Part shown: positions 21,829 through 36,425 of the stretch, piece after piece
Layout of the letters: each line of letters starts with the position of its first letter
Position numbering within the stretch: position 1 is the stretch's first letter
Source of the DNA: an uncultured Methanosarcinales archaeon
GTDB lineage: Archaea > Nanobdellota > Nanobdellia > Woesearchaeales > GW2011-AR9
DNA length: 38,756 bases
Reading direction: 5' to 3'
Assembly: GCA_964405725.1 (NCBI GenBank)
Contig: CAYOOY010000003.1
Location: 1-38,756, forward strand
Translations under genes and position numbers: made by a program
The notes under the pieces: generated by a model
What the model saw: only the letters and a program-made list of their open reading frames with translations
Databases searched by the model: none
Told to the model about the DNA's origin: nothing

Positions 21829-24174
21829 CTACTTCCCTTTCTTTTTTCCATAAATGAATATTTCTGTCTTAAATAATCGCCTTCTTCTGGAATAAGTTAC
21901 ATTTAATTTTTCTTTCTTGAATATTGCAAGTATCTTCTTTTTATCATCTACTTCTATTGCGTTCGGAGTCATGTTCAAAACATTATTCTTAATGTAAAAA
22001 CAAAATTTTCCTTTAGTATTCAATACTTTCTTAACATCATGAACAAATGAAGAGATATCTTTAACATATCCCAAATCATTAAATGAAATAAATGAATCTA
22101 CTTTTCCAGATTTTGTTGGAATACTAAGCGATCTAAGGAAATGAATAGTAATATGTTTCCTATCTTTAAGAGAAATGTTTTCTTTAAAAAACTTAATTTC
22201 TTCTTTTGATTGATTCGCTACAATTATCTTACGAAAAGGCATTTTAGCTTTAACGATTTTTTGAGTGAACGCACCCATTTGGGAATTGTACACCATAATT
22301 GTTGATTTTTTAGTAAAAGGACCAACTAAATTGATAATCTTGTTGAACGATGGTTTAGGTAAAGGAATTCTATGAAAATAATGTGACAACTTAGCTGACA
22401 TATTTCGCCTCAGGCCAACATACTTTTTATCGTAAAACAATTCTATTGCAAAATACGCTGGTACACCAAACACAATCAACCCACCAGAGATTCTAAGGAT
22501 ATCTAAGGCTCCATGGGTTTCCTTAATGAACATGATTAACAAAAAGATCATGAACAGAATTGTTGCAAAAGGTCCTACTTTTCCAAAAATGACACGATAA
22601 GGTCGATGCAAATCTGGCTTCTTAAATCGTAAGATCACTACGCTAAGTAACACTGCGGAATACACTATCAATATCAATGGAATGAGCATATGTAACAAAG
22701 TCTCGTATGAACCTGCTCCGACAATTACAAGAGCAGACACCACTATTACTTGAAATAAAATTGAAATATACGGGCTTTTGTGTTTCGGGTGAATTCGAGC
22801 AAACTGAGTGAAAAAGAGTTTATCTTCAGCGATTGACATTAAAAGACGAGGTGCGGTTACAATCCAGCCAGCCGTGGCCCCGATTACTGAAACAAATATA
22901 AGTACTGCAAAAATGATTCCACCTACTGCTCCAAAATGCGCGGACCCTAAATCCTTGAGAGGAGCAACCGATTCTGAAAATTGCGCCCAGGGAATTGTTC
23001 CCATGGCTGTAAAAGCAAGAAAAAATGATAATACAGCAATTATTAGTGTTCCATATATTAATGCTTTAGGCATGATTTTAGAAGGATTCTTTGTTTCCGC
23101 AGATAAGAAAATTGCACTTTCCCACCCAAAAAATGTTTCTGCTATAAAGAAGATTGCTAAAAGAACATTCATTGTGGGAAAAACGAAGAACGGATCAAAG
23201 TTGCCAAAATTGATATTAACAAATCCTGGAATAATTATTGCAATTACAGCTGTTAACGTGATAATTGCAAAGGTGACTAATACAACAGTAGATGTTTGCA
23301 TCCCTCTAAACGCAACATAACTAAATGCAATAATTAAAAAAATAGCAATTGGAATGTATGTGTACGAATATTGAAGGGGTATAAGATATTGCAGAGCACC
23401 TAGCAAAAGCATTGCGATAGTAACACTTCCCGCAATAGATGTTGTCCACCCAATAACAAACGACCAAAATCGCCCATAAGTTTGCTTTGCAAATTCATAT
23501 ACTCCTCCTGCCTTTGGGAACATGGAAACTAATTCGCCAAAACACATGGCAATATAAACAGAGATTAATGATAGTATTCCCCATGACAACAAGGAAGCAG
23601 GACCCGCATGCTTTGCTCCTGCCGAAGTGAGAAACCAAATTCCCGTTCCCATAATTGAGTTAATTGTAATAAGAAGAATTACTTTAAAGCTAAGAGTCTT
23701 TTTCATCTCCTTCTCGTGCGGTTGTACTTTTCTAATTTTAGCTTTTTTAACATATTTTCGTGTTCGCAAAAATCGCGGTGCTCGTGCGCCAAACCGCAAT
23801 AATCGCAGTAACCGTCCGTAGCGTGCAAATCGAGCCATTCTTGCCACCCTCGAAATTATTCGAACTCCTCTTAATGCCCTAATTAATGTAAGAGATTCAA
23901 TTCCAATAAATATTAAGTTGAACGGAATTGTAGCAACAATATCCAATATGTGTTTTTTAACATATGGAAAAAAGCGTGGTGTTTCAAACCATCGATAATA
24001 CAAATCTATTGCAAATATTACTATAACATACACATCAAATACGTCTATTACATAAGACATAACTTTTCCAACGCCAAAAAAAAGTTCAATTACGGTAACA
24101 ACAAGAAGAAGAACTAACGAAGGGGGAATTAATAATTGAATTACATCATCTAATTTATTCCTACTCATTATCAA
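21829..24174 (-). CDS. Fusion protein: S1-S4 voltage-sensor-like domain, APC-family amino-acid permease and an unassigned C-terminal domain
   Basis: 781 aa.
- aa ~15-130: Kv-like S3 (HILDIVATIPFNLIF) and S4 with Arg at roughly every third residue (LIRALRGVRIISRVARMARFARYGRLLRLLRF). No pore or selectivity-filter segment follows.
- aa ~160-600: APC permease (INSIMGTGIWFL, GPASLLSW, FGELVSMFPKAGGVYEF).
- aa ~600-781: soluble domain. Confidence 0.75.
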   Translation of the reverse strand: MIMSRNKLDDVIQLLIPPSLVLLLVVTVIELFFGVGKVMSYVIDVFDVYVIVIFAIDLYYRWFETPRFFPYVKKHILDIVATIPFNLIFIGIESLTLIRALRGVRIISRVARMARFARYGRLLRLLRFGARAPRFLRTRKYVKKAKIRKVQPHEKEMKKTLSFKVILLITINSIMGTGIWFLTSAGAKHAGPASLLSWGILSLISVYIAMCFGELVSMFPKAGGVYEFAKQTYGRFWSFVIGWTTSIAGSVTIAMLLLGALQYLIPLQYSYTYIPIAIFLIIAFSYVAFRGMQTSTVVLVTFAIITLTAVIAIIIPGFVNINFGNFDPFFVFPTMNVLLAIFFIAETFFGWESAIFLSAETKNPSKIMPKALIYGTLIIAVLSFFLAFTAMGTIPWAQFSESVAPLKDLGSAHFGAVGGIIFAVLIFVSVIGATAGWIVTAPRLLMSIAEDKLFFTQFARIHPKHKSPYISILFQVIVVSALVIVGAGSYETLLHMLIPLILIVYSAVLLSVVILRFKKPDLHRPYRVIFGKVGPFATILFMIFLLIMFIKETHGALDILRISGGLIVFGVPAYFAIELFYDKKYVGLRRNMSAKLSHYFHRIPLPKPSFNKIINLVGPFTKKSTIMVYNSQMGAFTQKIVKAKMPFRKIIVANQSKEEIKFFKENISLKDRKHITIHFLRSLSIPTKSGKVDSFISFNDLGYVKDISSFVHDVKKVLNTKGKFCFYIKNNVLNMTPNAIEVDDKKKILAIFKKEKLNVTYSRRRRLFKTEIFIYGKKKGK

Positions 24175-24230: not shown

Positions 24231-25151
24231 TTAAGAATTAAGATATCCATCTAAAGATATACTATCATCACTTCTAATATTCCAACGATGTGTCGGTGGA
24301 ACAAAAATTTCTGAAAGCCTAAATTTTGGGTCCAATTGATGTTCAACCAATTCACCATTAACTAATCTAAAAACATCTTTGGTCATATTTCCATCTTTCA
24401 TTTTAAAGAGCATCAACCCTTCATTATACACTGTCGTTTTCATTTTTTTATGTGCAGGGTCAAATCCTTCCTCAGCGTACATTAGTGTTAAACCACCAAC
24501 ATCTGGTAAATGCACTTTCAACGCAAAATCAAGTTGCACACAATTACAATGTGCATCTATATGAGCCACCGGATCACCGATAAGAGATTGTGTATTCACA
24601 GTAACACTTAAGTTATCTAAATGAGGAGGGTATTGTAGTAGATTTGGAATAACAGACACGCCTTGATTAGCATATGTAACGCGTGTATCATATGGAGTAA
24701 GAACTGATGTCCCCCAAATAACAGGACACAAACCATCTTCACCAACAACAATTAATTCCTCGCTCAACTCTTTTCCCATCAAACGAACTAATCCATCTGG
24801 CGAACCATATTCCGCTTCTGTATATCCAGAAATTAATTGTGAACGAGTTGTATTTGATTTGGAAACAATAATTGCGTACTCTTCACCTTGCCAATCAAGA
24901 GTAGCAGCAGCCGAAACCCCAACATTTGCTAAAGGAACAGAATCTCCAGCTTCTAATATGTTGCAAATTTGTGTAGCACGACGTTCTGAATTATGTTGAT
25001 AAAATTTTCTTTCCGCATCTTGCTCAGCAAAGCTTCTGACTTCATCAAGAATTGTAATATCTAATCCACCTTCAATTCTGCTAACTGTTACAGGATTATA
25101 CCCACTACCTGGAGAATGCAGAGATAAAATGTCTGGTAATTTGTAAGTCAT
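24231..25151 (-). CDS. Hypothetical protein (306 aa), translationally coupled to the upstream HD-domain gene
   Basis: The start is set at ATG 25151-25149 (MTYKLPDIL), which overlaps the upstream gene's TGA as ATGA. No family recognised. The composition is less Lys/Asn-rich than the neighbours. Confidence 0.55.
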   Translation of the reverse strand: MTYKLPDILSLHSPGSGYNPVTVSRIEGGLDITILDEVRSFAEQDAERKFYQHNSERRATQICNILEAGDSVPLANVGVSAAATLDWQGEEYAIIVSKSNTTRSQLISGYTEAEYGSPDGLVRLMGKELSEELIVVGEDGLCPVIWGTSVLTPYDTRVTYANQGVSVIPNLLQYPPHLDNLSVTVNTQSLIGDPVAHIDAHCNCVQLDFALKVHLPDVGGLTLMYAEEGFDPAHKKMKTTVYNEGLMLFKMKDGNMTKDVFRLVNGELVEHQLDPKFRLSEIFVPPTHRWNIRSDDSISLDGYLNS

Positions 25152-26083
25152 TTGTTGTTTCCTCGTGCAAAACAAAGTATACTTGCTAGTTCATCTTTGT
25201 AGAAATCTTCAAACATACGGGCAAATCTTTGCGGCGTTGCCACATCTTCAACAACTCCCAACTCTTCAGCACGACACATAAACATACCATCAATGATTGC
25301 TTTATCCGTTCTTGTATAAAATGTCTCACACATATTTCCTTCATTATATTTCTCTAACGATGTATCTAAAGGTAATCGATCCGTATTCCAATCTGTAGGA
25401 AGATCTTCTTCTCTCTCATAGAAAAAAGCTAACCTACACCGAAGGAATTCTTTGGGAGATAACGTAAATCCTAATTCTGCAGATTTAGCTTGGTATCCAG
25501 AATCACCATAATGTGCAACCATGTCTTTATACCAACTAAGAGCAGAAGGAACAAAACACCGATCTGCTCCTCTATGTGCCTTAGCTTCTCGATCAATTAA
25601 TTCTTCTCCCAAATAGGGAAAATCATGCGTATCAACAATTTCTTTTAATTTACCAATTCTCTCATTTGAAATATCAACACCACGAGATTGAAGTAAGCCA
25701 AGAGTGGAATAAAGCATTATACCACCAATTTCCATATGTTTCCAGCGTTTATCTGCATTTTCCCAATCAGCACCATCGGTAGTTGGGGCTATTTTCATTA
25801 ACGAATTTCCTGCATCATGTAACAATGCTGCATAAACTAAATCTCTATTAAATCCTTCTTCTCGACATATTGCAATCATAGAAGCTGGAACAATAACATT
25901 ATGAGAAGGTCGATACCATGCGCCCTCTTGGAATCCTAGATTTTGTACATAGTGATGAACATCCCGTTCTGCTGCATTTAGCATCCCACGAAGAGATAGA
26001 TCAATAGTTGGTTGATGGCCTTTTGCAACTTCTTTCATCAAATTTACGCATTCTGCGCGGTTTTCGGGACTATCAAATAACAT
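25148..26083 (-). CDS. HD-domain metal-dependent phosphohydrolase superfamily protein
   Basis: The ORF-track entry is trimmed to ATG 26083-26081 (MLFDSPENR). The HD pattern is SHNVIV-(about 29 aa)-ALLHDAGN ... KHMEIGG ... VDTHDFPY. Confidence 0.65.
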   Translation of the reverse strand: MLFDSPENRAECVNLMKEVAKGHQPTIDLSLRGMLNAAERDVHHYVQNLGFQEGAWYRPSHNVIVPASMIAICREEGFNRDLVYAALLHDAGNSLMKIAPTTDGADWENADKRWKHMEIGGIMLYSTLGLLQSRGVDISNERIGKLKEIVDTHDFPYLGEELIDREAKAHRGADRCFVPSALSWYKDMVAHYGDSGYQAKSAELGFTLSPKEFLRCRLAFFYEREEDLPTDWNTDRLPLDTSLEKYNEGNMCETFYTRTDKAIIDGMFMCRAEELGVVEDVATPQRFARMFEDFYKDELASILCFARGNNK

Positions 26084-26199: not shown

Positions 26200-27696
26200 A
26201 TGGATTCAAACAAAATAAAAGAGATAGTACAAAAGTTTTCTCACAAAAAAATAGCAGTTATTGGAGATTATTACTTAGATGAATATTTTCATTGTAATGC
26301 AAAATCATTTTCGCCAGAAGCGCCAGTACCAAGAGCTATAGTAAATAAAATCGAACATGTTCCTGGCTGTGCTGGAAATGTTGCAATGGCATTCAAACAT
26401 CTAGGTGCACATGTGTTTGCAATTGGCGTTGTTGGTCCAGACGAAAAAGGGCATATATTACGTAATGCACTTATCAATTCTTCAATCAATACCACAAATT
26501 TAGTAGTAGATAGTGAAAGACTAACTGGTACATTTAGTAGAATCATTCTTGGCTCAGCTACCGACACATTAAACCAACATTTTATTCGTTTTGATCAAGA
26601 AAACAAAGCAGGAATTAGCCAGAACACACAACAAAAAATAATGGATCAATTACAATCATGTATTCAAAAAGTGGATCTCATTTTCATTGCAGATTACGAT
26701 GAAGCAAATAAACAAGGAATTGTTACAAATAATATGATTGAAAAAATAACCAATCTTGCAAAACAACACGCAGTCCCAACCATGGGATTATCACGTGAGA
26801 ATATCCATACATTTTCAAACGCTGATACCCTTCTTTGCAATAAAAAAGAACTCAAATCAGCAACAAATATGCCAACCAATTCAGAAGATGAATTAATACA
26901 AGCAGCAAAACAACTTTTACTGAAAACAAACAGCTCAGAAATTGTGACAACATTGGGAAAAGAAGGAATGATGGTTTTAGACAAATCACATAATTATGAG
27001 TTTCTTCCAAGTGTAGCGAAAACTGTAGTTGATGTGTGTGGAGCTGGTGATGCTCTTAGTGCTATGTATGGCCTTTGTTCAACATTACAGCTACAAACAG
27101 TCACAAAAGGAACATTAGCAAGTTATGCTGCTGCTATTGCAATTTCAAAAATGGGAACAGCATCAGTCACACATGATGAGATTATAGATCTTGCAGCAGA
27201 ACAGAATCCTGAATCTTCAAAAATAATACTTGACCTACAAGAATTAACCAATAAAGTGTTACGTTATAAACAAGAAGGGAAAAAAATAGTATTTACAAAT
27301 GGATTTTTTGATGTATTTCATTCAGGCCATGTTCATTTATTACAAGAAGCACGAAAACACGGGGATATTTTAATTGTCGCAATTAACAGCGATAGATCAA
27401 CTAAAGAAAACAAGGGAGAACATAGACCTTTTCTATCACAAGATGAGCGATTAAAGATACTTTCTTCACTTGATTGTTTGGACCATGCAATAGTATTTGA
27501 CGAGTTAACACCTGTGAAAATAATTTCTTCCCTGCAACCAGATATTGTAGCTAAAGGTGGAAATTTTTCAGTTGATCAAGTAATAGGAAAAGATATAATT
27601 GAAAAGTATGGTGGGATAATAAAAATAATTCCTCTAAATGAGACAACTAATACTAAATCACTTCTTGAAAGAATTAGTTCAGCAAAAGAATTATAG
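26200..27696 (+). CDS. hldE: Bifunctional D-glycero-beta-D-manno-heptose-7-phosphate kinase / heptose-1-phosphate adenylyltransferase (HldE/RfaE-like)
   Basis: 498 aa. The N-terminal PfkB kinase domain matches HldE motifs (IGDYYLDEY, SPEAPVP, PGCAGNVA, DVCGAGDA). The C-terminal cytidylyltransferase fold is FTNGFFDVFHSGHVHLLQEARKHGDILIVAINSD. Confidence 0.85.
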   Translation: MDSNKIKEIVQKFSHKKIAVIGDYYLDEYFHCNAKSFSPEAPVPRAIVNKIEHVPGCAGNVAMAFKHLGAHVFAIGVVGPDEKGHILRNALINSSINTTNLVVDSERLTGTFSRIILGSATDTLNQHFIRFDQENKAGISQNTQQKIMDQLQSCIQKVDLIFIADYDEANKQGIVTNNMIEKITNLAKQHAVPTMGLSRENIHTFSNADTLLCNKKELKSATNMPTNSEDELIQAAKQLLLKTNSSEIVTTLGKEGMMVLDKSHNYEFLPSVAKTVVDVCGAGDALSAMYGLCSTLQLQTVTKGTLASYAAAIAISKMGTASVTHDEIIDLAAEQNPESSKIILDLQELTNKVLRYKQEGKKIVFTNGFFDVFHSGHVHLLQEARKHGDILIVAINSDRSTKENKGEHRPFLSQDERLKILSSLDCLDHAIVFDELTPVKIISSLQPDIVAKGGNFSVDQVIGKDIIEKYGGIIKIIPLNETTNTKSLLERISSAKEL

Positions 27697-27710
27697 TAAA
27701 TAAGAGAAAT

Positions 27711-30335
27711 ATGAAAACAAAAGATAGAGATCCTCAATCACATTTCGCCATAGTAGATAGTTTTCTAAAACAAGCCGATCTTGATCAAGAAGAATATTTA
27801 GTCTTAACTAACGAACTAAAAAGATATCTTGATTTAAAATTAAATAGAGGGTTTATTCATCCAATGATCACTAAATTCTCAACAGATTGGTATCGTGAAT
27901 TCTATAGATTAATTGGATTTAAAGATCCGTATAAAAAATTAAAAGATCTCTCGAATGAAAAAGCAGGTGCCATTTTACCAACATTAACTGTAAATTCGTT
28001 TGAAGAAGCAGTGAAATTAAGTGTAGCTGGTAATATCTTAGATTATGGATCTGTTCTTGTTTTGAATCCAGAATTATACAATATTGCACATGAGATAACA
28101 CAATTCAAAAATTTATCTCTTTCAATAGATGACATAGAAAAACTTCAAGATGACATAAAAAATGCGAAAACTATTTTATTTCTGCCAGACAATGCAGGTG
28201 AATGTATTTTTGACATACCCCTATTAGAATACATAAACAAACATCTTCCCTCATATCGAGTATTTATTGGTGCTAAATCATCGCCAATGCTTAACGATGT
28301 TACATCTCAAGAATTACGTGATTTAGGATTTGACAAATATGGTACAATTATTCCAACCGGATCAAATGGGTTTGGCCTTCATGAAGAAGACACATCATTT
28401 GAGTTTAAAAGAATCTTACATGATGTAGATTTAATCATAGCAAAGGGTCAAGCATATATGGAATTTTTTACAGAATACAATTTTAAAAATGCATACAACC
28501 TTACTCGAGTAAAATATCCAATCATCAATGCAGCACTTGGAACATTAGATTATCATCAAAATGTAGTAGTATCATCAAACCGATATGCACATACTGGTAA
28601 AGCATACAAATTTGGTTCTCTTCATCCAAAAATTATTGAAAAAGAAAAATTGGCAGATGTAATAAAATCATTACGTTCGCAAGGAAAATCAATTGTAACT
28701 GCAAATGGCTCATTTGACATCCTTCATGTTGGACACATTCGTACATTTGAAAACGCAAAAAGGCAAGGAGATGTCCTTATAGTTGGGCTTAACAGTGATA
28801 GTTCAATACGACAATATAAATCACCTTATCGACCAATTAACCCTGAGCAACATCGAGCAGAATTTCTTGCATCGTTACATTCAATTGATTACGTGACCAT
28901 TTTTGATGAAACTGATCCTATTGCATTACTTTCATTAATTAAACCAGATGTCCATTGTAATGGTTCTGAATATGGAGAAAAATGTATTGAAGCAGAAACT
29001 GTAAAAGAATATGGTGGAAGAATCCATATCATGCCACCAATTGATGGTTTTTCAACAAGTGCAATGATTAACAAATGTGTAAAAGTACGCCAACTAGAAG
29101 AAAAATTGCACGAGCAAAGTGGTGAACATACCCCTCCCACAAAATTTGACATTAAAACAATGAGGGATAGCATTCTTTCAACGATCAAATCACAATCAGG
29201 AATTTTATTTGCAAAACCCGCATTAGTTCATCGTGAAGCATATTGTGGGAGAGGAATAATTGCAAAGAACACTAAGTTCGAACCATCCTACACTGATGAT
29301 AGAGGTTATTTACCAGTTGAATGGTGGGTTATGTCAACGATTCAAGCCGAAAATGAAATAAACAAACCTCTTGAAGGGATCACACACGTGTTAATTGAAG
29401 GGGTACCAACTCCATTAACTAAAGTACTTCAATATGTTCAAAAAGAAATTTTTGGGGAGTTTCAAGATTCATGGCCTCTAACAAAAATATTAGATATTGG
29501 TGGAGAGCCAGTTACACCTTCATTTTCAAAGACACGTGAAGTTCCCCCAATTCCAGTCCATGTCCATCCAGGGTATGTTCAAAATGGAAAAATAATTCCA
29601 CCAGGAAAAACAGAAGCATATTTCTTTCCACCGGTTGACATAGCTCCTTACAACCAAAACTTTGGACCAACAATTACTCGTCTTGGACTAAAACCAGATA
29701 TAACAAAAGAAGAATTTATTGATGCACTTGAGAAATATGGAAAAGATGATTCAATGTATTCAATATGTAACACGTACGATATCAAAGCAAATGATGGATG
29801 GACAATTCCATCAGGCATTGTTCATGCTCCTGGGCCATGGATAACATTTGAAATTCAACGACCACAAGATGATTTCCATTTACTTTCATGGCAATTAGGA
29901 TCCAGGTTGGATAACGAAACAAAACAAGAGCATACAAAAAGAATGCAGCTTCGCGGTCTTGCTAATTATCAAGATCTTGTAGATCAAGCAATAGATTGGA
30001 AAACGTCAACCGACCCACAATTTAAAAATAAATTTTATAGACCAAGTACAATAATTTCTACGGGTGATTGGGGAACAAGATCACAAATATTTTTTGATAT
30101 GTTCTATGGTGAAGCAATAGAGATGAACCCTAATTCGCAGATCACACTCCCCATATCCAATCAACCATACGCAGGAATTGTGTGGTCTGGAAAGGGATTA
30201 ATTAACAACAATCGTTTGGATGTAGATAACGAATTAGCTAAAGAATTTTTAATTACACCAAATACTGAGGTAACAATACAAAATGAAGAAAATAAAAAAT
30301 TACTTATTTACACAGTCTACCCACAAAGAAAATGA
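27711..30335 (+). CDS. Tri-domain protein: DUF89/ARMT1-type phosphatase, RfaE-II-like nucleotidyltransferase and type-I phosphomannose-isomerase-like cupin
   Basis: 874 aa.
- aa 1-~295: DUF89 motifs (LPDNAGECIFD, IAKGQAYMEFF).
- aa ~305-460: TANGSFDILHVGHIRTFENAKRQGDVLIVGLNSD and EYGGRIHIMP.
- aa ~480-874: PMI-like motifs (LTKILDIGG, PVHVHPGY, GKTEAYFF, IPSGIVHAPGPWITFEIQRPQDD). Confidence 0.7.
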   Translation: MKTKDRDPQSHFAIVDSFLKQADLDQEEYLVLTNELKRYLDLKLNRGFIHPMITKFSTDWYREFYRLIGFKDPYKKLKDLSNEKAGAILPTLTVNSFEEAVKLSVAGNILDYGSVLVLNPELYNIAHEITQFKNLSLSIDDIEKLQDDIKNAKTILFLPDNAGECIFDIPLLEYINKHLPSYRVFIGAKSSPMLNDVTSQELRDLGFDKYGTIIPTGSNGFGLHEEDTSFEFKRILHDVDLIIAKGQAYMEFFTEYNFKNAYNLTRVKYPIINAALGTLDYHQNVVVSSNRYAHTGKAYKFGSLHPKIIEKEKLADVIKSLRSQGKSIVTANGSFDILHVGHIRTFENAKRQGDVLIVGLNSDSSIRQYKSPYRPINPEQHRAEFLASLHSIDYVTIFDETDPIALLSLIKPDVHCNGSEYGEKCIEAETVKEYGGRIHIMPPIDGFSTSAMINKCVKVRQLEEKLHEQSGEHTPPTKFDIKTMRDSILSTIKSQSGILFAKPALVHREAYCGRGIIAKNTKFEPSYTDDRGYLPVEWWVMSTIQAENEINKPLEGITHVLIEGVPTPLTKVLQYVQKEIFGEFQDSWPLTKILDIGGEPVTPSFSKTREVPPIPVHVHPGYVQNGKIIPPGKTEAYFFPPVDIAPYNQNFGPTITRLGLKPDITKEEFIDALEKYGKDDSMYSICNTYDIKANDGWTIPSGIVHAPGPWITFEIQRPQDDFHLLSWQLGSRLDNETKQEHTKRMQLRGLANYQDLVDQAIDWKTSTDPQFKNKFYRPSTIISTGDWGTRSQIFFDMFYGEAIEMNPNSQITLPISNQPYAGIVWSGKGLINNNRLDVDNELAKEFLITPNTEVTIQNEENKKLLIYTVYPQRK

Positions 30336-30351
30336 ACAGATAAAACACAAT

Positions 30352-31269
30352 ATGTATTCAAAAATAGTTGTAACTGGTGGAGCAGGTTTCATAGGATCTA
30401 ATCTAGCAATAGCTCTGCAAGAGAAATATCCCGAAACAAAAATAGTTGTGTTAGATAACTTTCTAGTAGGTCATTTCAAAAATTTACGAAAATTCAAAGG
30501 ACAAGTTATAGCAGCCGACATTCTACATTTTGATTGGAATAGTCTTGGCAAAGTTGATGCAATATTTCATGAAGCAGCAATCACAGATACTACAGTCATG
30601 GATCAAAAACATATGATTAATGTGAATACAAACGCGTTTGAGAGATTACTTCATCATTGTCTAAAAAATAAAATAAAATTAATTTATGCAAGTTCAGCAG
30701 CAACATATGGTAATACTGCTCCTCCAATGATTGAGTGGAAAAACCAGGAACCCGCCAATATTTATGGATATTCTAAATTATTGATGGATCAACGCGTAAA
30801 AGAAATCCTTGATAACTCACCTGACGCTGAAATTGTAGGATTACGCTATTTCAATGTCTACGGACCACACGAACAATTTAAAGGTAAAATGGCTTCGATG
30901 ATTTGGCAATTATATGGACAAATGAAAGAAGGGAAAAAACCAAGGATTTTCAAACACGGAGAACAAAAAAGAGATTTCGTCTACATTAAAGATGTTGTAC
31001 ACGCAAATTTATGCGCGCTTGATGGCTCTTCGGGAATATTTAATGTAGGGGCCGGTAGAGCCGAAGATTTTAATACAATCATAGCTGAATTAAATAAAAA
31101 TATGGAATTAAAATTAAAAACAGAATACATTGATAACCCATATGATTTCTTTCAAGACCACACTTTGGCTGATTTATCTGAAGCTGCAATGTGGGGTTAT
31201 GCTCCAAGTTTTAATCTTGAAACAGGAATAAAAGATTACGTTGATTGGATAAAACGCGAAGGATTGTAA
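30352..31269 (+). CDS. hldD: ADP-L-glycero-D-manno-heptose 6-epimerase (HldD/RfaD-like SDR)
   Basis: The start is set at ATG 30352 (MYSKIVVTGGAGFIGSNLA), downstream of the preceding stop. Contains YGYSK (YxxxK), LRYFNVYGPHE and KRDFVYIKDV, with an HldD-like C-terminus. Confidence 0.8.
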   Translation: MYSKIVVTGGAGFIGSNLAIALQEKYPETKIVVLDNFLVGHFKNLRKFKGQVIAADILHFDWNSLGKVDAIFHEAAITDTTVMDQKHMINVNTNAFERLLHHCLKNKIKLIYASSAATYGNTAPPMIEWKNQEPANIYGYSKLLMDQRVKEILDNSPDAEIVGLRYFNVYGPHEQFKGKMASMIWQLYGQMKEGKKPRIFKHGEQKRDFVYIKDVVHANLCALDGSSGIFNVGAGRAEDFNTIIAELNKNMELKLKTEYIDNPYDFFQDHTLADLSEAAMWGYAPSFNLETGIKDYVDWIKREGL

Positions 31270-31270
31270 A

Positions 31271-31294
31271 CTGAATACAAGACTGAATACAAGA
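31271..31294. repeat. Perfect tandem duplication of a 12-nt unit (ctgaatacaaga x2) in the hldD-GT9 spacer
   Basis: Read directly: 31271-31282 and 31283-31294 are identical. Confidence 0.9.
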
Positions 31295-31304
31295 GATTGC
31301 AAGA

Positions 31305-32330
31305 ATGAAACCCACCAAAATTCTTTTCTTCAAAATAGGTGCAATTGGAGACACGTTAATGAGCACCCCACTTGTTCGTCAAGTAAAACGACAAATACCA
31401 GATGCAACTATGCATTATTTGGTTGGAAAACATTCAGCACCCATTCTTAAGAGAAACCCTCATCTTGACAAAATAATTCCATTTAATGAAGAAATATTTA
31501 CAAAAAGACAAATCACAAAAGTAATGCAAATGGTTTCGTATGTACGAAAACAGAAGTATGATATTGCATTTGTGCTAGATAAACATTGGATTTTTAATTT
31601 AACTGCAAAATTAAGTGGCATTCCAAAACGAATTGGGTTTGATCGATTAGGAAAAGAAGGACAATTTCTAACACATAAGGTGTATTATGGAAAAATTCGC
31701 CACGATGTTCGCTACTACCTTGATTTAGCTCGCGAGGCAAATATGCAAGTTCGTTATTTCGATCATCAAATGGAAGTTAATTTATCTCTTAATGATCTTG
31801 CATATGCGAGTGCTTTTTGGCAAGAAAATGGATTAGATGATAATGTAATTGGCATTTGTCCGGGTGGTGGGAAAAATCCAGGACAAGTACTTGAAGATAA
31901 AATTTGGCCAATTGAAAAATATACCCAATTAATTGATGAACTTCTCAAAAGAAATCATGACATCCTTTTGCTTGGCGGACCAACCGATAAAGCAAAAGAA
32001 ATTGCGATTAGACAAAAGCATAAAAACATTTCATCTGCAATTGGGAAATCAAATTTGCATCAAAGTGCTGCATTAATGCGGCGTTGTTCATTAGTTATCT
32101 GTAATGATTCCGGCCCAATGCATTTAGCAGCCTGCGTAAATAAACGCGTGATTGGCATTTTTGGACCAGTTCATCCAGAACGAAAAGCCCCCCTTTGGCC
32201 AGAATCGTCATATGTATGGAAAGCTAAGGATATATACGACCCCGATGCTGAAACATACGGAACATTTACAAAACAAGATTATTTAGGAAGGGTCTCTGTT
32301 GAAGATATTCTAAAACTAGTTGAACAATAG
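31305..32330 (+). CDS. Family 9 glycosyltransferase (ADP-heptose-dependent heptosyltransferase-like)
   Basis: 341 aa. KILFFKIGAIGDTLMSTPLVRQVKRQIPDA (GT9 N-terminal motif), ICPGGGKNP and CNDSGPMHLAAC. Confidence 0.8.
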   Translation: MKPTKILFFKIGAIGDTLMSTPLVRQVKRQIPDATMHYLVGKHSAPILKRNPHLDKIIPFNEEIFTKRQITKVMQMVSYVRKQKYDIAFVLDKHWIFNLTAKLSGIPKRIGFDRLGKEGQFLTHKVYYGKIRHDVRYYLDLAREANMQVRYFDHQMEVNLSLNDLAYASAFWQENGLDDNVIGICPGGGKNPGQVLEDKIWPIEKYTQLIDELLKRNHDILLLGGPTDKAKEIAIRQKHKNISSAIGKSNLHQSAALMRRCSLVICNDSGPMHLAACVNKRVIGIFGPVHPERKAPLWPESSYVWKAKDIYDPDAETYGTFTKQDYLGRVSVEDILKLVEQ

Positions 32331-32377
32331 ATTACCCACCCAAAAAACTTATAATCCCGCTACTTGGTTAGACACAT

Positions 32378-33010
32378 ATGATTATTATTGTTGATTATGG
32401 TATGGGGAACCTTCATTCCGTTCACAAAGCATTCGAATTAATGGGAGCTGATGTTACACTCTCTTCTAGAAAGGAAGATTTAGAGAATGCGTCTGGAATT
32501 GTGCTTCCTGGAGTTGGAGCATTTGGTCAAGGGATGCACAATCTTGCTAAACTAGATTTAATTGATACAATAAAAGAACAAATTTTGATCAAGAATAAAC
32601 CATTTTTAGGTATTTGCTTAGGTATGCAATTATTAGCAACAAAGAGTGAAGAATTTGGTAACCATCAAGGACTCAATATAATCCCCACAACAATCACTAA
32701 ATTCCCTTCATCGGATGACCTTAGAATCCCACACGTGGGATGGAACAACATTACAATAATCAAAGATAATCCTCTTCTACAAGGAATAAAGCAAGATACA
32801 GATGTATATTTTGTTCATAGTTTTTGCATGAAAGCAAACGATGAAAATTTCCCAATTGCGACATGCACGTATGGAGACACATTTACAGCAGCATTGCAAA
32901 AAGGAAATATTTTTGGCACACAGTTTCATCCTGAGAAAAGCCAAGATACTGGGTTACAAATCATTGAAAATTTTGCTTCATATGTCAATGAACAAAAAGA
33001 TAAAACCTAA
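32378..33010 (+). CDS. hisH: HisH-like glutamine amidotransferase (glycan-cluster paralog, WbuY/PseA-partner type)
   Basis: 210 aa. IIIVDYGMGNLHSV, FLGICLGMQLL (catalytic Cys), HVGWN, FGTQFHPEKS. Confidence 0.85.
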   Translation: MIIIVDYGMGNLHSVHKAFELMGADVTLSSRKEDLENASGIVLPGVGAFGQGMHNLAKLDLIDTIKEQILIKNKPFLGICLGMQLLATKSEEFGNHQGLNIIPTTITKFPSSDDLRIPHVGWNNITIIKDNPLLQGIKQDTDVYFVHSFCMKANDENFPIATCTYGDTFTAALQKGNIFGTQFHPEKSQDTGLQIIENFASYVNEQKDKT

Positions 33011-33031
33011 ACCAAATTATAAAAATTAAAA

Positions 33032-33796
33032 ATGTTAAAAACTCGGCTTATTCCAATTTTATTGCTTAAAAAAGGACGTATGGTAAAAACAAAGCAATTT
33101 TCTTCACTTCGGGACGTTGGGGACCCAATTACTTCAGCGAAAATATATAATTATCAAACTGTTGATGAATTAGTTTTTCTTGATATTGAAAAGGGAGAAC
33201 ACAATCAACAAATTCTATACGATATAATTAGTAAAGTTGCAGAAGAATGTTTTATGCCATTAACTGTTGGAGGAGGTATTCGAACTATTCAAGACATTAG
33301 ACAAATTCTGTCAGCCGGAGCAGATAAAGTTTCTATTAATACTGCTGCAATAGAAAACCCTGATTTCATTAAAGAGGCAGTCAATATATTTGGATCATCC
33401 ACAATTGTAATTTCAATTGATGTAAAAAAAGAAGAAGGAAGTGAAGAGTACAAAGTATATGTTGGAAATGGCAAAATGTCAACTTCTCTTAATCCAGTTG
33501 ATCTTGCAAAGAGAGTTGAAAAATTAGGTGTTGGTGAAATTCTTATTACTTCAATTGATCAAGAAGGAACAATGGAAGGATATGATATAAATCTTATTAA
33601 ATCAATCAGTGAAGCTGTATCAATCCCAGTTATTGCACACGGGGGAGCCGGAAAACTGGATGATTTTCGCAGTGCAATCATTGAAGGAGGAGCCACCGCC
33701 ATTGCTGCAGCAAGTATTTTTCACTTTACCGATCAAAGCCCAATAAAGGCACGAAGTTACCTACAGTACCACAACATTAATGTAAGAAAAGAATAA
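33032..33796 (+). CDS. hisF: HisF-like cyclase subunit (glycan-cluster paralog, WbuZ type)
   Basis: 254 aa. RLIPILLLKKGRMVKTKQF, DELVFLDI, GGGIRT, ADKVSINTAA, GEILITSIDQEGTMEGYD, GGAG. Confidence 0.85.
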   Translation: MLKTRLIPILLLKKGRMVKTKQFSSLRDVGDPITSAKIYNYQTVDELVFLDIEKGEHNQQILYDIISKVAEECFMPLTVGGGIRTIQDIRQILSAGADKVSINTAAIENPDFIKEAVNIFGSSTIVISIDVKKEEGSEEYKVYVGNGKMSTSLNPVDLAKRVEKLGVGEILITSIDQEGTMEGYDINLIKSISEAVSIPVIAHGGAGKLDDFRSAIIEGGATAIAAASIFHFTDQSPIKARSYLQYHNINVRKE

Positions 33797-33810
33797 AAGA
33801 GGCCACATAA

Positions 33811-35511
33811 ATGAAACAATGCACCACATGTACATTACCCGAAACCCACGAAACGATTACGTTTAATGAGCAAGGTTCTTGTAACGTTTGCCAAGGACAA
33901 AAGCATAAACACGAAATAATTGATTGGGATCTTAAAAAAGAAGAATTAAAAGAACTTATTGAAAAATATCGTGGATCTGGAGAATATGATTGTTTAATCC
34001 CATTTAGTGGAGGAAAAGACTCAACATTCACTGCATACTATCTTATCAAAGAATTCAATTTAAAACCATTAATTGTTTGTTTTGATCACGGATTTCTTCG
34101 TCCAAAAATAATCCAATATAGAATCAAAACACTCAAAAAATTAGGAGCAGATTTTCATCAATTTACACCAAATTATCATGTAATCAAAAAGCTAATGCTT
34201 GAATCCCTAAAGCGAAAGGGAGATTTTTGTTGGCATTGTCACACGGGAATTTTTGCATATCCAATGCAAGTTGCAGTTAAATATAATATTCCTCTTATTT
34301 TTTGGGGAGAGAGAAGTAGTGAATACACTGCATATTACAGTTATGATAATCCAGAAGAAGTGGATGAAAAACGATTTAACAGATATATCAATTTGGGAAT
34401 AAATGCTGAAGATATGGTAGGGTTTCTTGATGAGTCTGTTACTATGCGAGATTTGGCACCTTTCAAATATCCTGCGCTAAAAGATTTGAAAAGTATTAAT
34501 TACAGATCTGTATGTCTTGGAAGTTATATTAGGTGGGATACCAAAAAACAATCAGAACTAATAAAGAAAGAATTAGATTGGAACGGGGACCAAGTAGAAG
34601 GGGTTCCTCCAGAATATTTCTATGAAAAGATTGAATGTATGCTGCAAGGAGTTCGTGATTGGTGTAAATATATCAAAAGAGGATATTCTCGTATGACTCA
34701 TTTATCAAGTATTGCGATCCGCAATGGACGATTAAGCCGGGAACAGGCACTTGAAATGATTAAAGAATATGAAGGAAAAAGACCAAAAAGTCTAGATTAT
34801 TTTTTAGAATTTATGGATATGAGCGAAGAAGAATTTATGCAAATCATTTTGCAGCATCAAATTAGCCCATATGTATTTGATTCAAGTTCAGTTACAGATG
34901 GAAAAAAATTATGGGATCATGATAAATGGGATAGAACAAAGGTTGATAACAAGATTTCAAAAAGAGATGAAATCATTAAAGGAAATCGGGTATATCTTCG
35001 TGAATTGTGTACTAATGATGCATCAGAAAAATATGCTAATTGGTTAAATGACCCAATAGTAAATCAATATCTTGAAACACGAAGTTCTACAATAGAAGAA
35101 ATTGAAGAGTATATCAAATCAAAAACAAGTGACCCAAATTCTCTTTTTGTTGGAATTTTTGATATTAATACAAAAAATCACATTGGAAATATGAAATTCG
35201 AGCCAATTAATTGGTCTACAAAAGAAGCAACAATTGGTATATTAATTGGAGATAAAAATTACTGGGGGAAAGGGATAGCTACAGAAGCAACTCATTTGTT
35301 TATCAAACACGCATTTGAAATGTTAGGATTAAAAAAAATAAAGTTAGGCGTAGATGCACGAAACAAGGCAGCTATTCGAGTATATGAAAAATTGGGATTC
35401 AAACAAACTGGTTTTTTTCCAAACACAAAGAACAATAGTGGGATAGTATTTGATAACATCAAAATGAAACTTGAAAAAGAAAATATCAAAGGAGAAATTC
35501 ACCTAACATGA
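33811..35511 (+). CDS. N-acetyl sugar amidotransferase (WbuX/WbpG/PseA-like PP-loop enzyme) fused to a C-terminal GNAT acetyltransferase
   Basis: 566 aa.
- aa 1-~375: CTTCTLPET...CNVC zinc-ribbon, PP-loop IPFSGGKDSTF, CWHCHTG.
- aa ~385-566: RimJ/RimL-like GNAT (VYLRELCTNDASEKYANWLNDP, YWGKGIATEA, NKAAIRVYEKLGF). Confidence 0.75.
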   Translation: MKQCTTCTLPETHETITFNEQGSCNVCQGQKHKHEIIDWDLKKEELKELIEKYRGSGEYDCLIPFSGGKDSTFTAYYLIKEFNLKPLIVCFDHGFLRPKIIQYRIKTLKKLGADFHQFTPNYHVIKKLMLESLKRKGDFCWHCHTGIFAYPMQVAVKYNIPLIFWGERSSEYTAYYSYDNPEEVDEKRFNRYINLGINAEDMVGFLDESVTMRDLAPFKYPALKDLKSINYRSVCLGSYIRWDTKKQSELIKKELDWNGDQVEGVPPEYFYEKIECMLQGVRDWCKYIKRGYSRMTHLSSIAIRNGRLSREQALEMIKEYEGKRPKSLDYFLEFMDMSEEEFMQIILQHQISPYVFDSSSVTDGKKLWDHDKWDRTKVDNKISKRDEIIKGNRVYLRELCTNDASEKYANWLNDPIVNQYLETRSSTIEEIEEYIKSKTSDPNSLFVGIFDINTKNHIGNMKFEPINWSTKEATIGILIGDKNYWGKGIATEATHLFIKHAFEMLGLKKIKLGVDARNKAAIRVYEKLGFKQTGFFPNTKNNSGIVFDNIKMKLEKENIKGEIHLT

Positions 35512-36374
35512 AGCTAGCATTAGGCACAGTACAATTTGGGTTAGATTATGGGATTAATAATAGTAAAGGCAAACCTCCTAAAGAAGAAGTAGCCAAGATT
35601 CTTAGATTTGCTAAACAAAGGGGTATTACTATACTCGATACAGCTAGCGCCTACGGAAATAGCCAACAAGTAATAGGAGAAGTGGCAGACAAAGACGCAT
35701 TTAATATCGTAACAAAGCTTGGTAAAGAAAATGTCAATTCGATGAAAAATGATTTTCTTGAATCGTTAAAACATTTGCAAACTTCGAGCGTATACGCATG
35801 CTTATTTCATCATTTTGAATCATTTAAAGAAAATCCGAATGTATGGCAAGAGATGATCCATCTAAAACAACAAGGATTAACAAAAAAAATAGGATTCTCT
35901 CTTTATTCACCCGATGAGTTGGAATATTTATATTCACACAATATTAATTTTGATATTATTCAAATACCATTTAGTATATTTGATCAGCGTTTTTCATCTT
36001 ATTTGGAAGGACTGCAAAATAGAGGCGTGGAAGTGCATGTTCGATCCGTGTTTTTGCAAGGGTTGTTTTTCAAGACACAAAACAACCTGCATCCTCATTT
36101 TAACAGCATTCAAGATAAAATTGAGAAATTACACTCTCTTAGTACAAAAGAAAATATTCCCATTTCTTCTTTGTGTATTCACTTTGCATTACAACATCAT
36201 AATATTAATAAAGTTGTAATTGGTGTGGATTCTGTTGAAAATCTGCAAGAAAATGTTGAAGCAATAACTCATGCAGATGAACAAAAAATACAAAAGATAT
36301 GTGCACAATTGGCCAACCTTCGGTGTGAAGATGAAAAAATAATCTTACCAACACATTGGCCTCCTCGTTCATAA
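35508..36374 (+). CDS. Aldo/keto reductase family oxidoreductase
   Basis: 288 aa. LGTVQFGLDYG, ILDTASAYGNSQ, IGFSLY, VRSVFLQGL. The start overlaps the preceding stop (ATGA). Confidence 0.75.
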   Translation: MKLALGTVQFGLDYGINNSKGKPPKEEVAKILRFAKQRGITILDTASAYGNSQQVIGEVADKDAFNIVTKLGKENVNSMKNDFLESLKHLQTSSVYACLFHHFESFKENPNVWQEMIHLKQQGLTKKIGFSLYSPDELEYLYSHNINFDIIQIPFSIFDQRFSSYLEGLQNRGVEVHVRSVFLQGLFFKTQNNLHPHFNSIQDKIEKLHSLSTKENIPISSLCIHFALQHHNINKVVIGVDSVENLQENVEAITHADEQKIQKICAQLANLRCEDEKIILPTHWPPRS

Positions 36375-36425
36375 ATTATTTTTAATTTCGTGAACAGCAC
36401 ATACGAACAAATTGGAGATGAAAAT

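Follow-up and report, generated by a model that had tools for sequence, protein, structure and literature searches.

The window analyzed here is a 38.7 kb stretch of archaeal DNA (38,756 nucleotides of contig CAYOOY010000003.1), and it encodes a single 874-aa protein in which three domains are joined, namely a DUF89/ARMT1-like phosphatase, a nucleotidyltransferase (NT) of the RfaE-domain-II type, and a bicupin resembling the type I phosphomannose isomerases (PMIs). Its gene lies between hldE on one side and hldD and a GT9 heptosyltransferase gene on the other. An earlier note on this DNA had put forward that the fusion supplies two steps of ADP-heptose biosynthesis, which in the textbook route are performed by the SIS-fold isomerase GmhA and the HAD-fold phosphatase GmhB, with folds unrelated to either. 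Our analysis supports this proposal: the active sites are intact, the architecture recurs, and GmhA and GmhB are found in none of the 25 loci that carry the PMI-like domain.

The operon and its proposed pathway

The three-domain open reading frame (ORF) is present exactly as had been described, each of its domains could be identified, and matches in Pfam and NCBIfam agree with the neighbors that had been named. The features of the operon are the following:

26200..27696, + strand: hldE homolog, PfkB-type heptose-7-phosphate kinase (aa 1–335; PF00294, E 3e-31) with a C-terminal NT domain
27711..30335, + strand: tri-domain ORF DUF89–NT–PMI-like, 874 aa, ATG start
27711..28595, + strand: DUF89/ARMT1-like metal-dependent phosphatase domain, proposed heptose-1,7-bisphosphate 7-phosphatase (GmhB analog; PF01937)
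28626..29090, + strand: HldC/RfaE-domain-II-type NT, proposed heptose-1-phosphate adenylyltransferase and functional NT of the system (TIGR02199, PF01467)
29160..30332, + strand: PMI-type-I-like bicupin, proposed sedoheptulose-7-phosphate isomerase (GmhA analog; AlphaFold2 (AF2) model, Foldseek, and profile)
30352..31269 (listed ORF from 30283), + strand: hldD, ADP-glyceromanno-heptose 6-epimerase (TIGR02197, 340.7 bits against a cutoff of 274.6)
31305..32330, + strand: GT9 heptosyltransferase (PF01075, E 4.7e-37; TIGR02195, 135.3 bits against a cutoff of 134.6)

The HldE homolog scores 332 bits against NF008454 (HldE) and 235 bits against TIGR02198, both below the curated cutoffs. Its stop codon is separated from the fusion ORF by 14 nt, and a further 16 nt lie between the end of the fusion and the likely start of hldD, which, going by the sequence, is probably the Met codon at 30352, past the fusion stop codon. 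All genes from 26200 to 38564 are read from the + strand, and the kinase, NT, 6-epimerase, and heptosyltransferase are contiguous on it, as befits a cluster for the biosynthesis and transfer of ADP-heptose. The short motifs that had been quoted for the fusion are all present and conserved, namely DNAGE at residue 160, AKGQAY at 244, HVHP at 617, GKTEAY at 632, and IVHAPG at 703. We also considered that separate genes could have been joined into this ORF by an assembly error or a frameshift and rejected this, since the architecture is common to 14 independent homologs.

Taken together, the operon hldE–(DUF89-NT-PMI-like)–hldD–GT9 would encode a complete ADP-heptose pathway with two of its steps performed by unrelated folds. 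In the first step, the PMI-like bicupin would convert sedoheptulose-7-phosphate (sedoheptulose-7-P) to D-glycero-D-manno-heptose-7-P in place of GmhA, using a metal held by H617, H619, E635, and H705 and proceeding through an enediol via K592 and K633, in the manner of PMI acting on fructose-6-P/mannose-6-P. Phosphorylation at O-1 would then fall to the PfkB domain of HldE, after which the DUF89 domain would strip the 7-phosphate (with D160-N161, D196, and K245) in place of GmhB. The central NT, in which the HxGH and STS motifs are intact and the Arg at motif position 5 is missing, would adenylylate the resulting heptose-1-P. Finally, HldD would epimerize C-6 and the GT9 enzyme would transfer the heptose, whose acceptor is probably the S-layer or an N-glycan, because related loci carry AglB/STT3 and S-layer genes. 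We infer the substrates of all these steps from fold, conserved residues, and gene context, and we consider the mechanism of the operon as a whole to be rather probable.

In the full-text literature, we found no paper in which heptose synthesis is tied to DUF89 or to a protein of the cupin/PMI-like kind, nor one describing such a system in Woesearchaeota or the DPANN archaea. The reaction sequence is that of the known textbook route, and it is the two analogous enzymes and the fusion architecture that appear to be new, in a system that appears to be undescribed.

Distribution and gene neighborhoods

Full-length homologs comprising all three domains number 14 (850–1003 aa, 52–61% identity). The PMI-like domain itself is far more widespread: its profile recovers 614 clusters at E ≤ 1e-3 and 86 at E ≤ 1e-30 from 1.84 billion representative proteins. 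Many of the family members are standalone proteins of ~400 aa, and none of ten members scanned with Pfam gave a match in the PMI-like domain. Among 185,579 species-representative genomes, the domain is encoded at 21 loci. Its archaeal hosts are Woesearchaeota, Aenigmatarchaeota, and small-genome metagenome-assembled genomes (MAGs), some of which are labelled Methanosarcinales and include a single 780-kb contig. The bacterial hosts belong to the Candidate Phyla Radiation (CPR)/Patescibacteria (Paceibacterota, Kaiserbacteria, and Saccharibacteria), and isolated records come from Limnochordales, Dehalococcoidia, and Verrucomicrobiaceae.

We mapped the domains of all fetched loci (up to ±10 kb around the gene in the relatives) with phmmer, and 25 of the loci carry the PMI-like domain. 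A PfkB heptose-type kinase accompanies it in 17 of these, an HldC-type NT in 18, DUF89 in 14, GT9 in 12, and HldD in 7. Where none of these accompany it, the contig is very short (L024, L026, L027), the sequence is error-rich (L019, L028), or the operon is catabolic (L015); L019 and L028 were left uninterpreted, as they hold few long ORFs, the match in L028 is fragmented, and both look error-rich or pseudogenized. Not only does the three-domain architecture recur, as a survey suggested by the earlier note shows, but its parts also keep to the neighborhood of PfkB kinase, GT9, and HldD where they are split or permuted:

hldE, then DUF89-NT-PMI fusion: window, L001/L008, L003, L009, L010
hldE followed by a DUF89-PMI fusion and a standalone NT: L004
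standalone DUF89 ahead of hldE and an NT-PMI fusion: L005, L011
DUF89, hldE, PMI, NT: L012
PMI, hldE, DUF89(-NT): L017, L018, L020
unfused PMI-like, NT, transaldolase, PfkB kinase, HAD phosphatase, without DUF89: CPR loci L022, L023, L025

Four loci without DUF89, all from CPR bacteria, have a HAD phosphatase instead, which is of the Cof or HAD-IA type in L022, L023, and L025. The CPR loci hold exactly one isomerase, kinase, phosphatase, and NT each, adjoining a transaldolase. In yet another arrangement, the 845-aa protein P0129 carries a PMI-like domain (aa 159–470) fused to a PfkB kinase (aa 480–748), a fusion that would join the consecutive first and second steps of the proposed pathway.

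Searches of the 25 loci with E. coli GmhA, an archaeal GmhA, E. coli GmhB, and a GmhB-type HAD (phmmer) gave no match in any of them. The same holds for the window, where neither fold had been seen before: a Pfam scan of its 36 ORFs found no SIS or HAD domain, and phmmer queries for GmhA and GmhB of E. coli and for the archaeal GmhA found nothing among all six-frame ORFs of at least 60 aa. As a control we used L030, the locus of a canonical Woesearchaeota HldE (P0045), which reads STT3-GT2-DUF2304-GT9-...-SIS_2-hldE-SIS_2-transketolase-RpiB-Rpe-transaldolase-GlpX-DeoC. E. coli GmhA detects the SIS genes of this locus at E 1.7e-53 and 1.5e-24, and the lack of GmhA matches in the PMI-like loci is therefore not a failure of sensitivity. 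On the 780-kb contig, L001 has the same STT3-GT2-DUF2304-GT9 block and hldE as L030, but its hldE is followed by the DUF89-NT-PMI fusion and SIS genes are absent. Non-orthologous displacement of GmhA would be expected to leave such a pattern.

Genes for the supply of sedoheptulose-7-P (transketolase/transaldolase) are frequent neighbors and are found in L006, L021–L025, and L030. Downstream of hldE and DUF89-NT, L006 encodes a transketolase, a fusion of transketolase with transaldolase, GT9, and two STT3 proteins. The hldE and GT9 genes adjoin AglB/STT3 oligosaccharyltransferases in L001, L006, and L030, and L001 has an S-layer gene as well, which suggests that the N-glycans or S-layer glycans of DPANN archaea contain heptose.

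Some relatives carry a further domain of ~330 aa, deoxyhypusine-synthase-like (DS-like), which in heptose clusters occurs instead of the PMI-like domain or together with it. It follows DUF89-NT or NT alone (P0019–P0021, L006:1901-4381; L003:6903-8390) and has weak matches to the C-terminal Rossmann fold of ArgZ and to deoxyhypusine-synthase folds. That it would be a simple substitute for the PMI-like domain was rejected, as L003 has both.

The PMI-like, probable isomerase domain

The C-terminal domain (aa ~484–874, ~390 aa) constitutes a separate family within the PMI-like fold and is, in our assessment, likely a sedoheptulose-7-P isomerase and thus an analog of GmhA. Its AF2 model, based on 19 homologs, reaches a predicted local distance difference test (pLDDT) score of 89.4 and a predicted template modeling (pTM) score of 0.87. 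The top 17 Foldseek matches of this model in the PDB are all type I PMIs (E 1e-14 to 1e-10, TM 0.55–0.76), among them 1zx5 (E 1.4e-14), 1qwr, S. typhimurium ManA, and C. albicans 1pmi, and generic bicupins come behind them at 1e-8 and worse.

At the sequence level, a single-sequence search of the domain against the PDB found nothing, and hhalign of the family profile with the single E. coli ManA sequence gave an insignificant match of 21 columns. Once broadened with distant members, the profile matches the PDB sequences of 1zx5 (E 2.5e-8) and 1qwr (E 5.6e-6), and the profile alignment pairs the following motifs:

window PLTKILD, 1qwr PLLTKLLD
window HVHP, 1qwr (K)VHP
window GKTEAYF, 1qwr GKTECWY
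window VHAPGP...FEIQ..QDD, 1qwr LHA...LETQQNSD

Within the family, H617, H619, K633, E635, and H705 are invariant among 17–19 members. Over 26 members down to 23% identity, K592, D595, H619, K633, E635, Y637, H705, E714, Q716, and D720 are invariant and H617 is at least 90% conserved. The conserved set corresponds to residues studied by mutagenesis in Salmonella PMI (K86, H99, K132, E134, H255, and E264, as named in the PDB entries), with the exception of R274, which by eye is not conserved. The PMI-like cupin with plausible metal ligands that had been recognized by eye is therefore upheld by the AF2 model and Foldseek, its metal and catalytic site is intact, and it was not placed in a non-isomerase cupin family.

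Compared with the known type I PMIs (B. subtilis 1qwr, A. fulgidus AF0035 1zx5, Salmonella/E. coli ManA, and C. albicans 1pmi), the domain has the bicupin fold in common, as well as the motifs LTK(I/L)LD, (H/Q)xH-P, GK-x-E, and H-A...E-x-Q..D. The heptose-linked subfamily differs from them by an insertion of ~14 residues between the Lys motif and HxH. Moreover, type I PMIs act on C6 sugars, whereas the genomic context of the window domain points to a C7 substrate.

The DUF89 phosphatase domain

The DUF89 domain spans aa 21–276 (PF01937 ARMT1-like, E 1.4e-39, 136.5 bits against a cutoff of 25), and its closest solved relative is PDB 2g8l (E 6.6e-29). The nucleophile and metal residues of DUF89 enzymes have been defined as an Asp-Asn pair, a second Asp ~36–38 residues downstream, and the Lys of K-G-x-x-x-Y (PMC9062747). 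D160-N161, D196, and K245 match these residues and are at least 90% conserved among 22 sequences, which confirms the sugar-phosphate phosphatase domain noticed earlier, with a nucleophile/metal site that is intact and not degenerate; a counterpart of Arg371 of that study was not located. Against the NCBIfam equivalog for "damage-control phosphatase" (NF040824), the domain scores 149.8 bits where the cutoff is 440, making it a member of the DUF89 family but not an equivalog of the characterized archaeal enzyme.

We lean toward a role of this domain as heptose-1,7-bisphosphate 7-phosphatase, with this as the putative substrate rather than, e.g., sedoheptulose-1,7-bisphosphate. In P0025, a GmhB-type HAD (NF006506, 166.5 bits; TIGR00213, 136 bits) is located N-terminal to an NT, which is followed by a methyltransferase; this NT is of the same subtype as that of the window fusion ("NGSEYGxxCIE" motif). 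P0080 is a GmhB-PfkB-NT fusion. These GmhB-NT and GmhB-HldE fusions resemble the window protein in having a phosphatase N-terminal to the same NT subtype, but theirs is of the canonical HAD-IIIA GmhB type and that of the window is DUF89. DUF89 thus takes the position held by GmhB in P0025, which supports the assignment without proving it. Among the PMI-like loci, DUF89 and HAD phosphatases alternate, except that L003 and L020 have both.

The known DUF89/ARMT1 damage-control phosphatases (PH1575 2g8l, yeast YMR027W, S. pombe Duf89, and the C-terminal domain of PANK4) have the fold and the D-N...D...K site in common with the window domain. They are standalone or PanK-fused and have housekeeping or repair roles, whereas the window domain is part of a biosynthetic fusion and operon.

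Two nucleotidyltransferase domains

The NT of the fusion spans aa 318–456 (PF01467, E 6e-15), and its best PDB match is 5x9q (E 2.4e-24). By far its best NCBIfam family is TIGR02199 (rfaE_dom_II), at 153.5 bits and below the cutoff of 181.5; domain II of the window HldE likewise stays below that cutoff (166 bits). The earlier suggestion of a second RfaE-II-type NT resembling the C-terminal half of HldE hence holds, with 29% identity between the two copies. To the NT of canonical HldE (e.g., P0045), the fusion NT is 56–57% identical. We rejected an identification of the domain as an archaeal FAD synthetase of the RibL type or as phosphopantetheine adenylyltransferase, as these families score E 1e-4 to 1e-8 and rfaE_dom_II 3e-45.

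In two commentaries, (F/L)XXGXSTT is described as the hallmark motif of heptose nucleotidyltransferases, and an Arg at motif position 5 (STTR5) is linked to the synthesis of CDP/UDP-heptose and marks enzymes that are promiscuous for CTP/UTP, although this rule is not strict (PMC11461863, PMC11573728). The motifs of the fusion NT are intact (HVGH at 339 and GFSTS at 446), the full stretch reading PIDGFSTS at 443–450 with P rather than F/L as first residue. "STS" is the commonest form of the motif among canonical HldE (56/97). Position 5 is occupied by Phe, and since the STTR5 Arg is missing, a preference for ATP would be expected. Together with the presence of HldD in the operon, this points to ADP-heptose as the predicted product.

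A comparison of the motifs between the NT groups gives the following picture:

ordinary HldE NTs (n = 97): S-T-[ST] kept in 90/97, HxGH kept in 97/97
"second" NTs of PMI-like loci (n = 22): S-T-[ST] kept in 19/22, HxGH kept in 20/22
HldE-linked NTs of the same PMI-like loci (n = 15): S-T-[ST] kept in 0/15, HxGH kept in 11/15

Of the three second NTs without S-T-[ST], one is truncated to a fragment, one carries the variant "SST", and the last is a distant, unrelated NT. In the HldE NT of the window (27220–27693), the STT motif has degenerated to "TTNTKS" ("NTK"), and the other HldE-linked NTs read, for example, "TAD", "SGE", or "SSD", with three of them truncated. Loci with a degenerate HldE NT include L001, L003, L004, L006, and L010. 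As STT is missing from the HldE-linked NT in 15/15 cases, the fusion NT is probably the working one, and the NT domain of HldE would be decaying or repurposed and probably inactive. Decay of the HldE NT is also the probable answer to why there is a second NT at all, a point that had been left open.

The standalone second NT of L004 (7936-8427) reads "GRSTT", i.e., the STTR5 form, compared with "GFSTS" in the window; nucleotide specificity may differ between lineages.

Alternative explanations

A number of observations weigh against the proposed pathway, and we discuss them here together with the three explanations that compete with it. One of them stands on its own: no PMI-like gene can be seen at L006, which has hldE and a DUF89-NT fused to the DS-like domain.

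According to the first alternative, which we deem unlikely, the PMI-like domain is indeed the isomerase, but DUF89 is not the analog of GmhB. Instead, it would be a sedoheptulose-1,7-bisphosphate 1-phosphatase that yields sedoheptulose-7-P or a damage-control (proofreading) enzyme that clears surplus or wrongly made heptose phosphates, with the 7-phosphatase being an HD-like neighbor or a HAD encoded elsewhere. The characterized DUF89 enzymes do favor ketose-1-phosphates such as fructose-1-P and are termed damage-control enzymes (PMC9062747). A supply route via a bisphosphatase also fits the logic of the clusters, as the transaldolase of L030 is accompanied by a bisphosphatase of the GlpX type and by a DeoC aldolase, and in L003 and L020 a DUF89 and a nearby HAD occur together. 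The HD-type hydrolase adjoining hldE in the window could be the phosphatase instead of DUF89:

25148..26083, − strand: HD-superfamily-like protein, divergent from hldE and 57% identical to L001:7487-8419; membership of the system uncertain

This protein has an all-helical AF2 model (pLDDT 94) with an H..HD..H..D pattern and weak Foldseek matches to HD hydrolases. It gives no Pfam or NCBIfam match and has only 16 homologs among 5.8 billion proteins. The gene is conserved beside hldE in four loci, also being found in L012 and L013, but these are only 4 of the 25 PMI-like loci, and elsewhere it occurs in varied contexts, some of them unrelated (the L035 copy adjoins an NT-PfkB fusion). DUF89, on the other hand, occurs in 14 loci, and clusters that lack it contain a HAD. 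It is moreover fused to an NT that needs heptose-1-P, at the very position of the GmhB-type HAD in P0025, and we therefore prefer DUF89 as the 7-phosphatase.

The second alternative, which we find still less probable, holds that canonical gmhA and gmhB are encoded elsewhere in the genome and that the fusion is a parallel route to a second activated sugar. This sugar could differ in nucleotide or anomer or could be a hexose, e.g., NDP-mannose formed via mannose-6-P and mannose-1,6-bisphosphate. The searches that showed gmhA and gmhB to be absent covered the window and ~10 kb on either side in the relatives, and for the 780-kb contig a search for GmhA homologs was saturated (at least 8000 matches, the top 120 all at ~1e-52) and had no power. 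The fold is, after all, that of mannose-6-P isomerase, and DUF89 is in every case accompanied by two NT domains. In addition, the family is not exclusively linked to heptose: a member in a Limnochordales MAG (L015:5990-7225), 48% identical to the window domain, has no heptose genes nearby and lies in an apparent sugar-catabolic operon of ABC transporter, DUF4432, FGGY kinase, PMI-like, and DeoC/LacD-type aldolase genes. L015 fits a general activity of the family as sugar-phosphate aldose-ketose isomerases, whose substrate specificity may vary.

Several features speak against such a parallel route. It does not look as if both NTs were active enzymes, given that the HldE-linked copy lacks STT in 15/15 and HxGH in 4/15 cases, and the CPR loci encode a single set of isomerase, kinase, phosphatase, and NT next to transaldolase. 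Furthermore, the operon contains HldD, which acts on C-6 of heptose, and GT9, and GmhA is found in 0/25 PMI-like loci but flanks hldE in the syntenic control.

The third alternative, a non-catalytic or regulatory cupin (e.g., a sugar-phosphate sensor) with an unrecognized enzyme as isomerase, draws on the lack of any Pfam family match of the C-terminal domain even at E ≤ 10 (of the profile checks proposed for the three domains, those for DUF89 and CTP_transf_like gave matches and that for the PMI families in Pfam did not) and on the phosphate-binding Arg of PMIs (R274 in S. typhimurium), which by eye appears to be replaced by Leu/Asn and apparently is not conserved, the window reading FEIQRPQDDFHLL after the E-x-(M/Q)..SD motif where PMIs have Arg; yet it is very improbable in view of the full PMI catalytic set that is invariant in 26 sequences down to 23% identity, the residue-for-residue alignment with 1qwr and 1zx5, the standalone operon proteins of ~400 aa, and the kinase fusion of P0129.

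Comparison with known systems

NDP-heptoses, including ADP-heptose, are building blocks of microbial envelopes and potent innate-immune agonists that are sensed by the kinase ALPK1. Surveys of NDP-heptose producers rely on homology to GmhA, HldE, and GmhB. The proposed window pathway follows the same reaction logic as the textbook ADP-heptose route and has the PfkB heptose kinase, HldC-type NT, HldD, and GT9 in common with it. In the textbook route, however, the isomerase is the SIS-fold GmhA and the phosphatase the HAD-IIIA GmhB, whereas the window has a PMI-type bicupin and DUF89, a case of analogy and not homology. The (putatively) working NT of the window is found on a separate polypeptide, with that of HldE being degenerate. 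Also unlike the textbook route, the host is an archaeon, with relatives in CPR bacteria, and these lack lipopolysaccharide.

To our knowledge, the nearest conceptual precedent for a fusion of an NT with a cupin isomerase is the type II PMI/GDP-mannose pyrophosphorylase (ManC/AlgA/XanB), whose two domains catalyze the opening and the closing reaction of a single nucleotide-sugar pathway. It differs from the window protein in that its NT has the NTP_transferase and not the cytidylyltransferase-like fold, its cupin is a single one of type II, it has no phosphatase, and its sugar is a hexose.

If the proposed pathway is correct, unrelated folds can carry out two of the four core steps, and homology surveys would miss the DPANN and CPR producers. 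An unannotated family (614 representative clusters without a Pfam model) would gain a function, DUF89 would gain its first pathway-committed role, and heptosylated S-layers or N-glycans would be indicated in ultra-small archaea. We see about even chances that DPANN and CPR share, presumably through horizontal transfer, a complete alternative NDP-heptose pathway with a PMI-like isomerase, a DUF89 phosphatase in what would be the first dedicated biosynthetic role of its family, and an HldE NT turned pseudo-enzyme.

The heptose nucleotidyltransferase (HENase) architectures of Tang et al. (Science 2024) are, as summarized in two commentaries, three in number: NT alone, kinase/NT, and isomerase(GmhA)/kinase/NT (PMC11461863, PMC11573728). 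DUF89-NT-cupin is not among these three, although the NT domain itself belongs to the same family (HxGH, G-x-S-T-[ST]).

Flanking genes

Next to the HD-like gene, on the same strand, lies its partner:

24231..25175, − strand: 314-aa protein, also in L001/L008 and L010; membership of the system uncertain

No match was obtained for this protein in Pfam or NCBIfam. The window further encodes Nop5, fibrillarin, and the RFC small subunit, in keeping with its archaeal, DPANN-like host, and its GC content is ~33%.

Downstream of GT9, on the + strand from 32378 to 38564, follow HisH-like and HisF-like genes, an aldo-keto reductase, a GNAT protein, and a 724-aa fusion. The GNAT domain is the C-terminal part of a 566-aa protein, of which the N-terminal half resembles, by eye, a PP-loop amidotransferase. 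The 724-aa protein combines a CMP-sugar-synthetase-like domain (CTP_transf_3) with a class-III aminotransferase. These genes look like a second sugar pathway, of the acetamidino or nonulosonate type, within the same glycan operon.

Finally, a 781-aa protein is encoded at 21829-24174 on the − strand. Pfam finds only an amino-acid permease in it (aa 161–548), leaving the C-terminal ~230 aa without assignment, and the N-terminal ~160 aa include an Arg-rich S4-like repeat (RALRGVRIISRVARMARFARYGRLLRLLRF); the protein may be an unusual channel-like/permease fusion.

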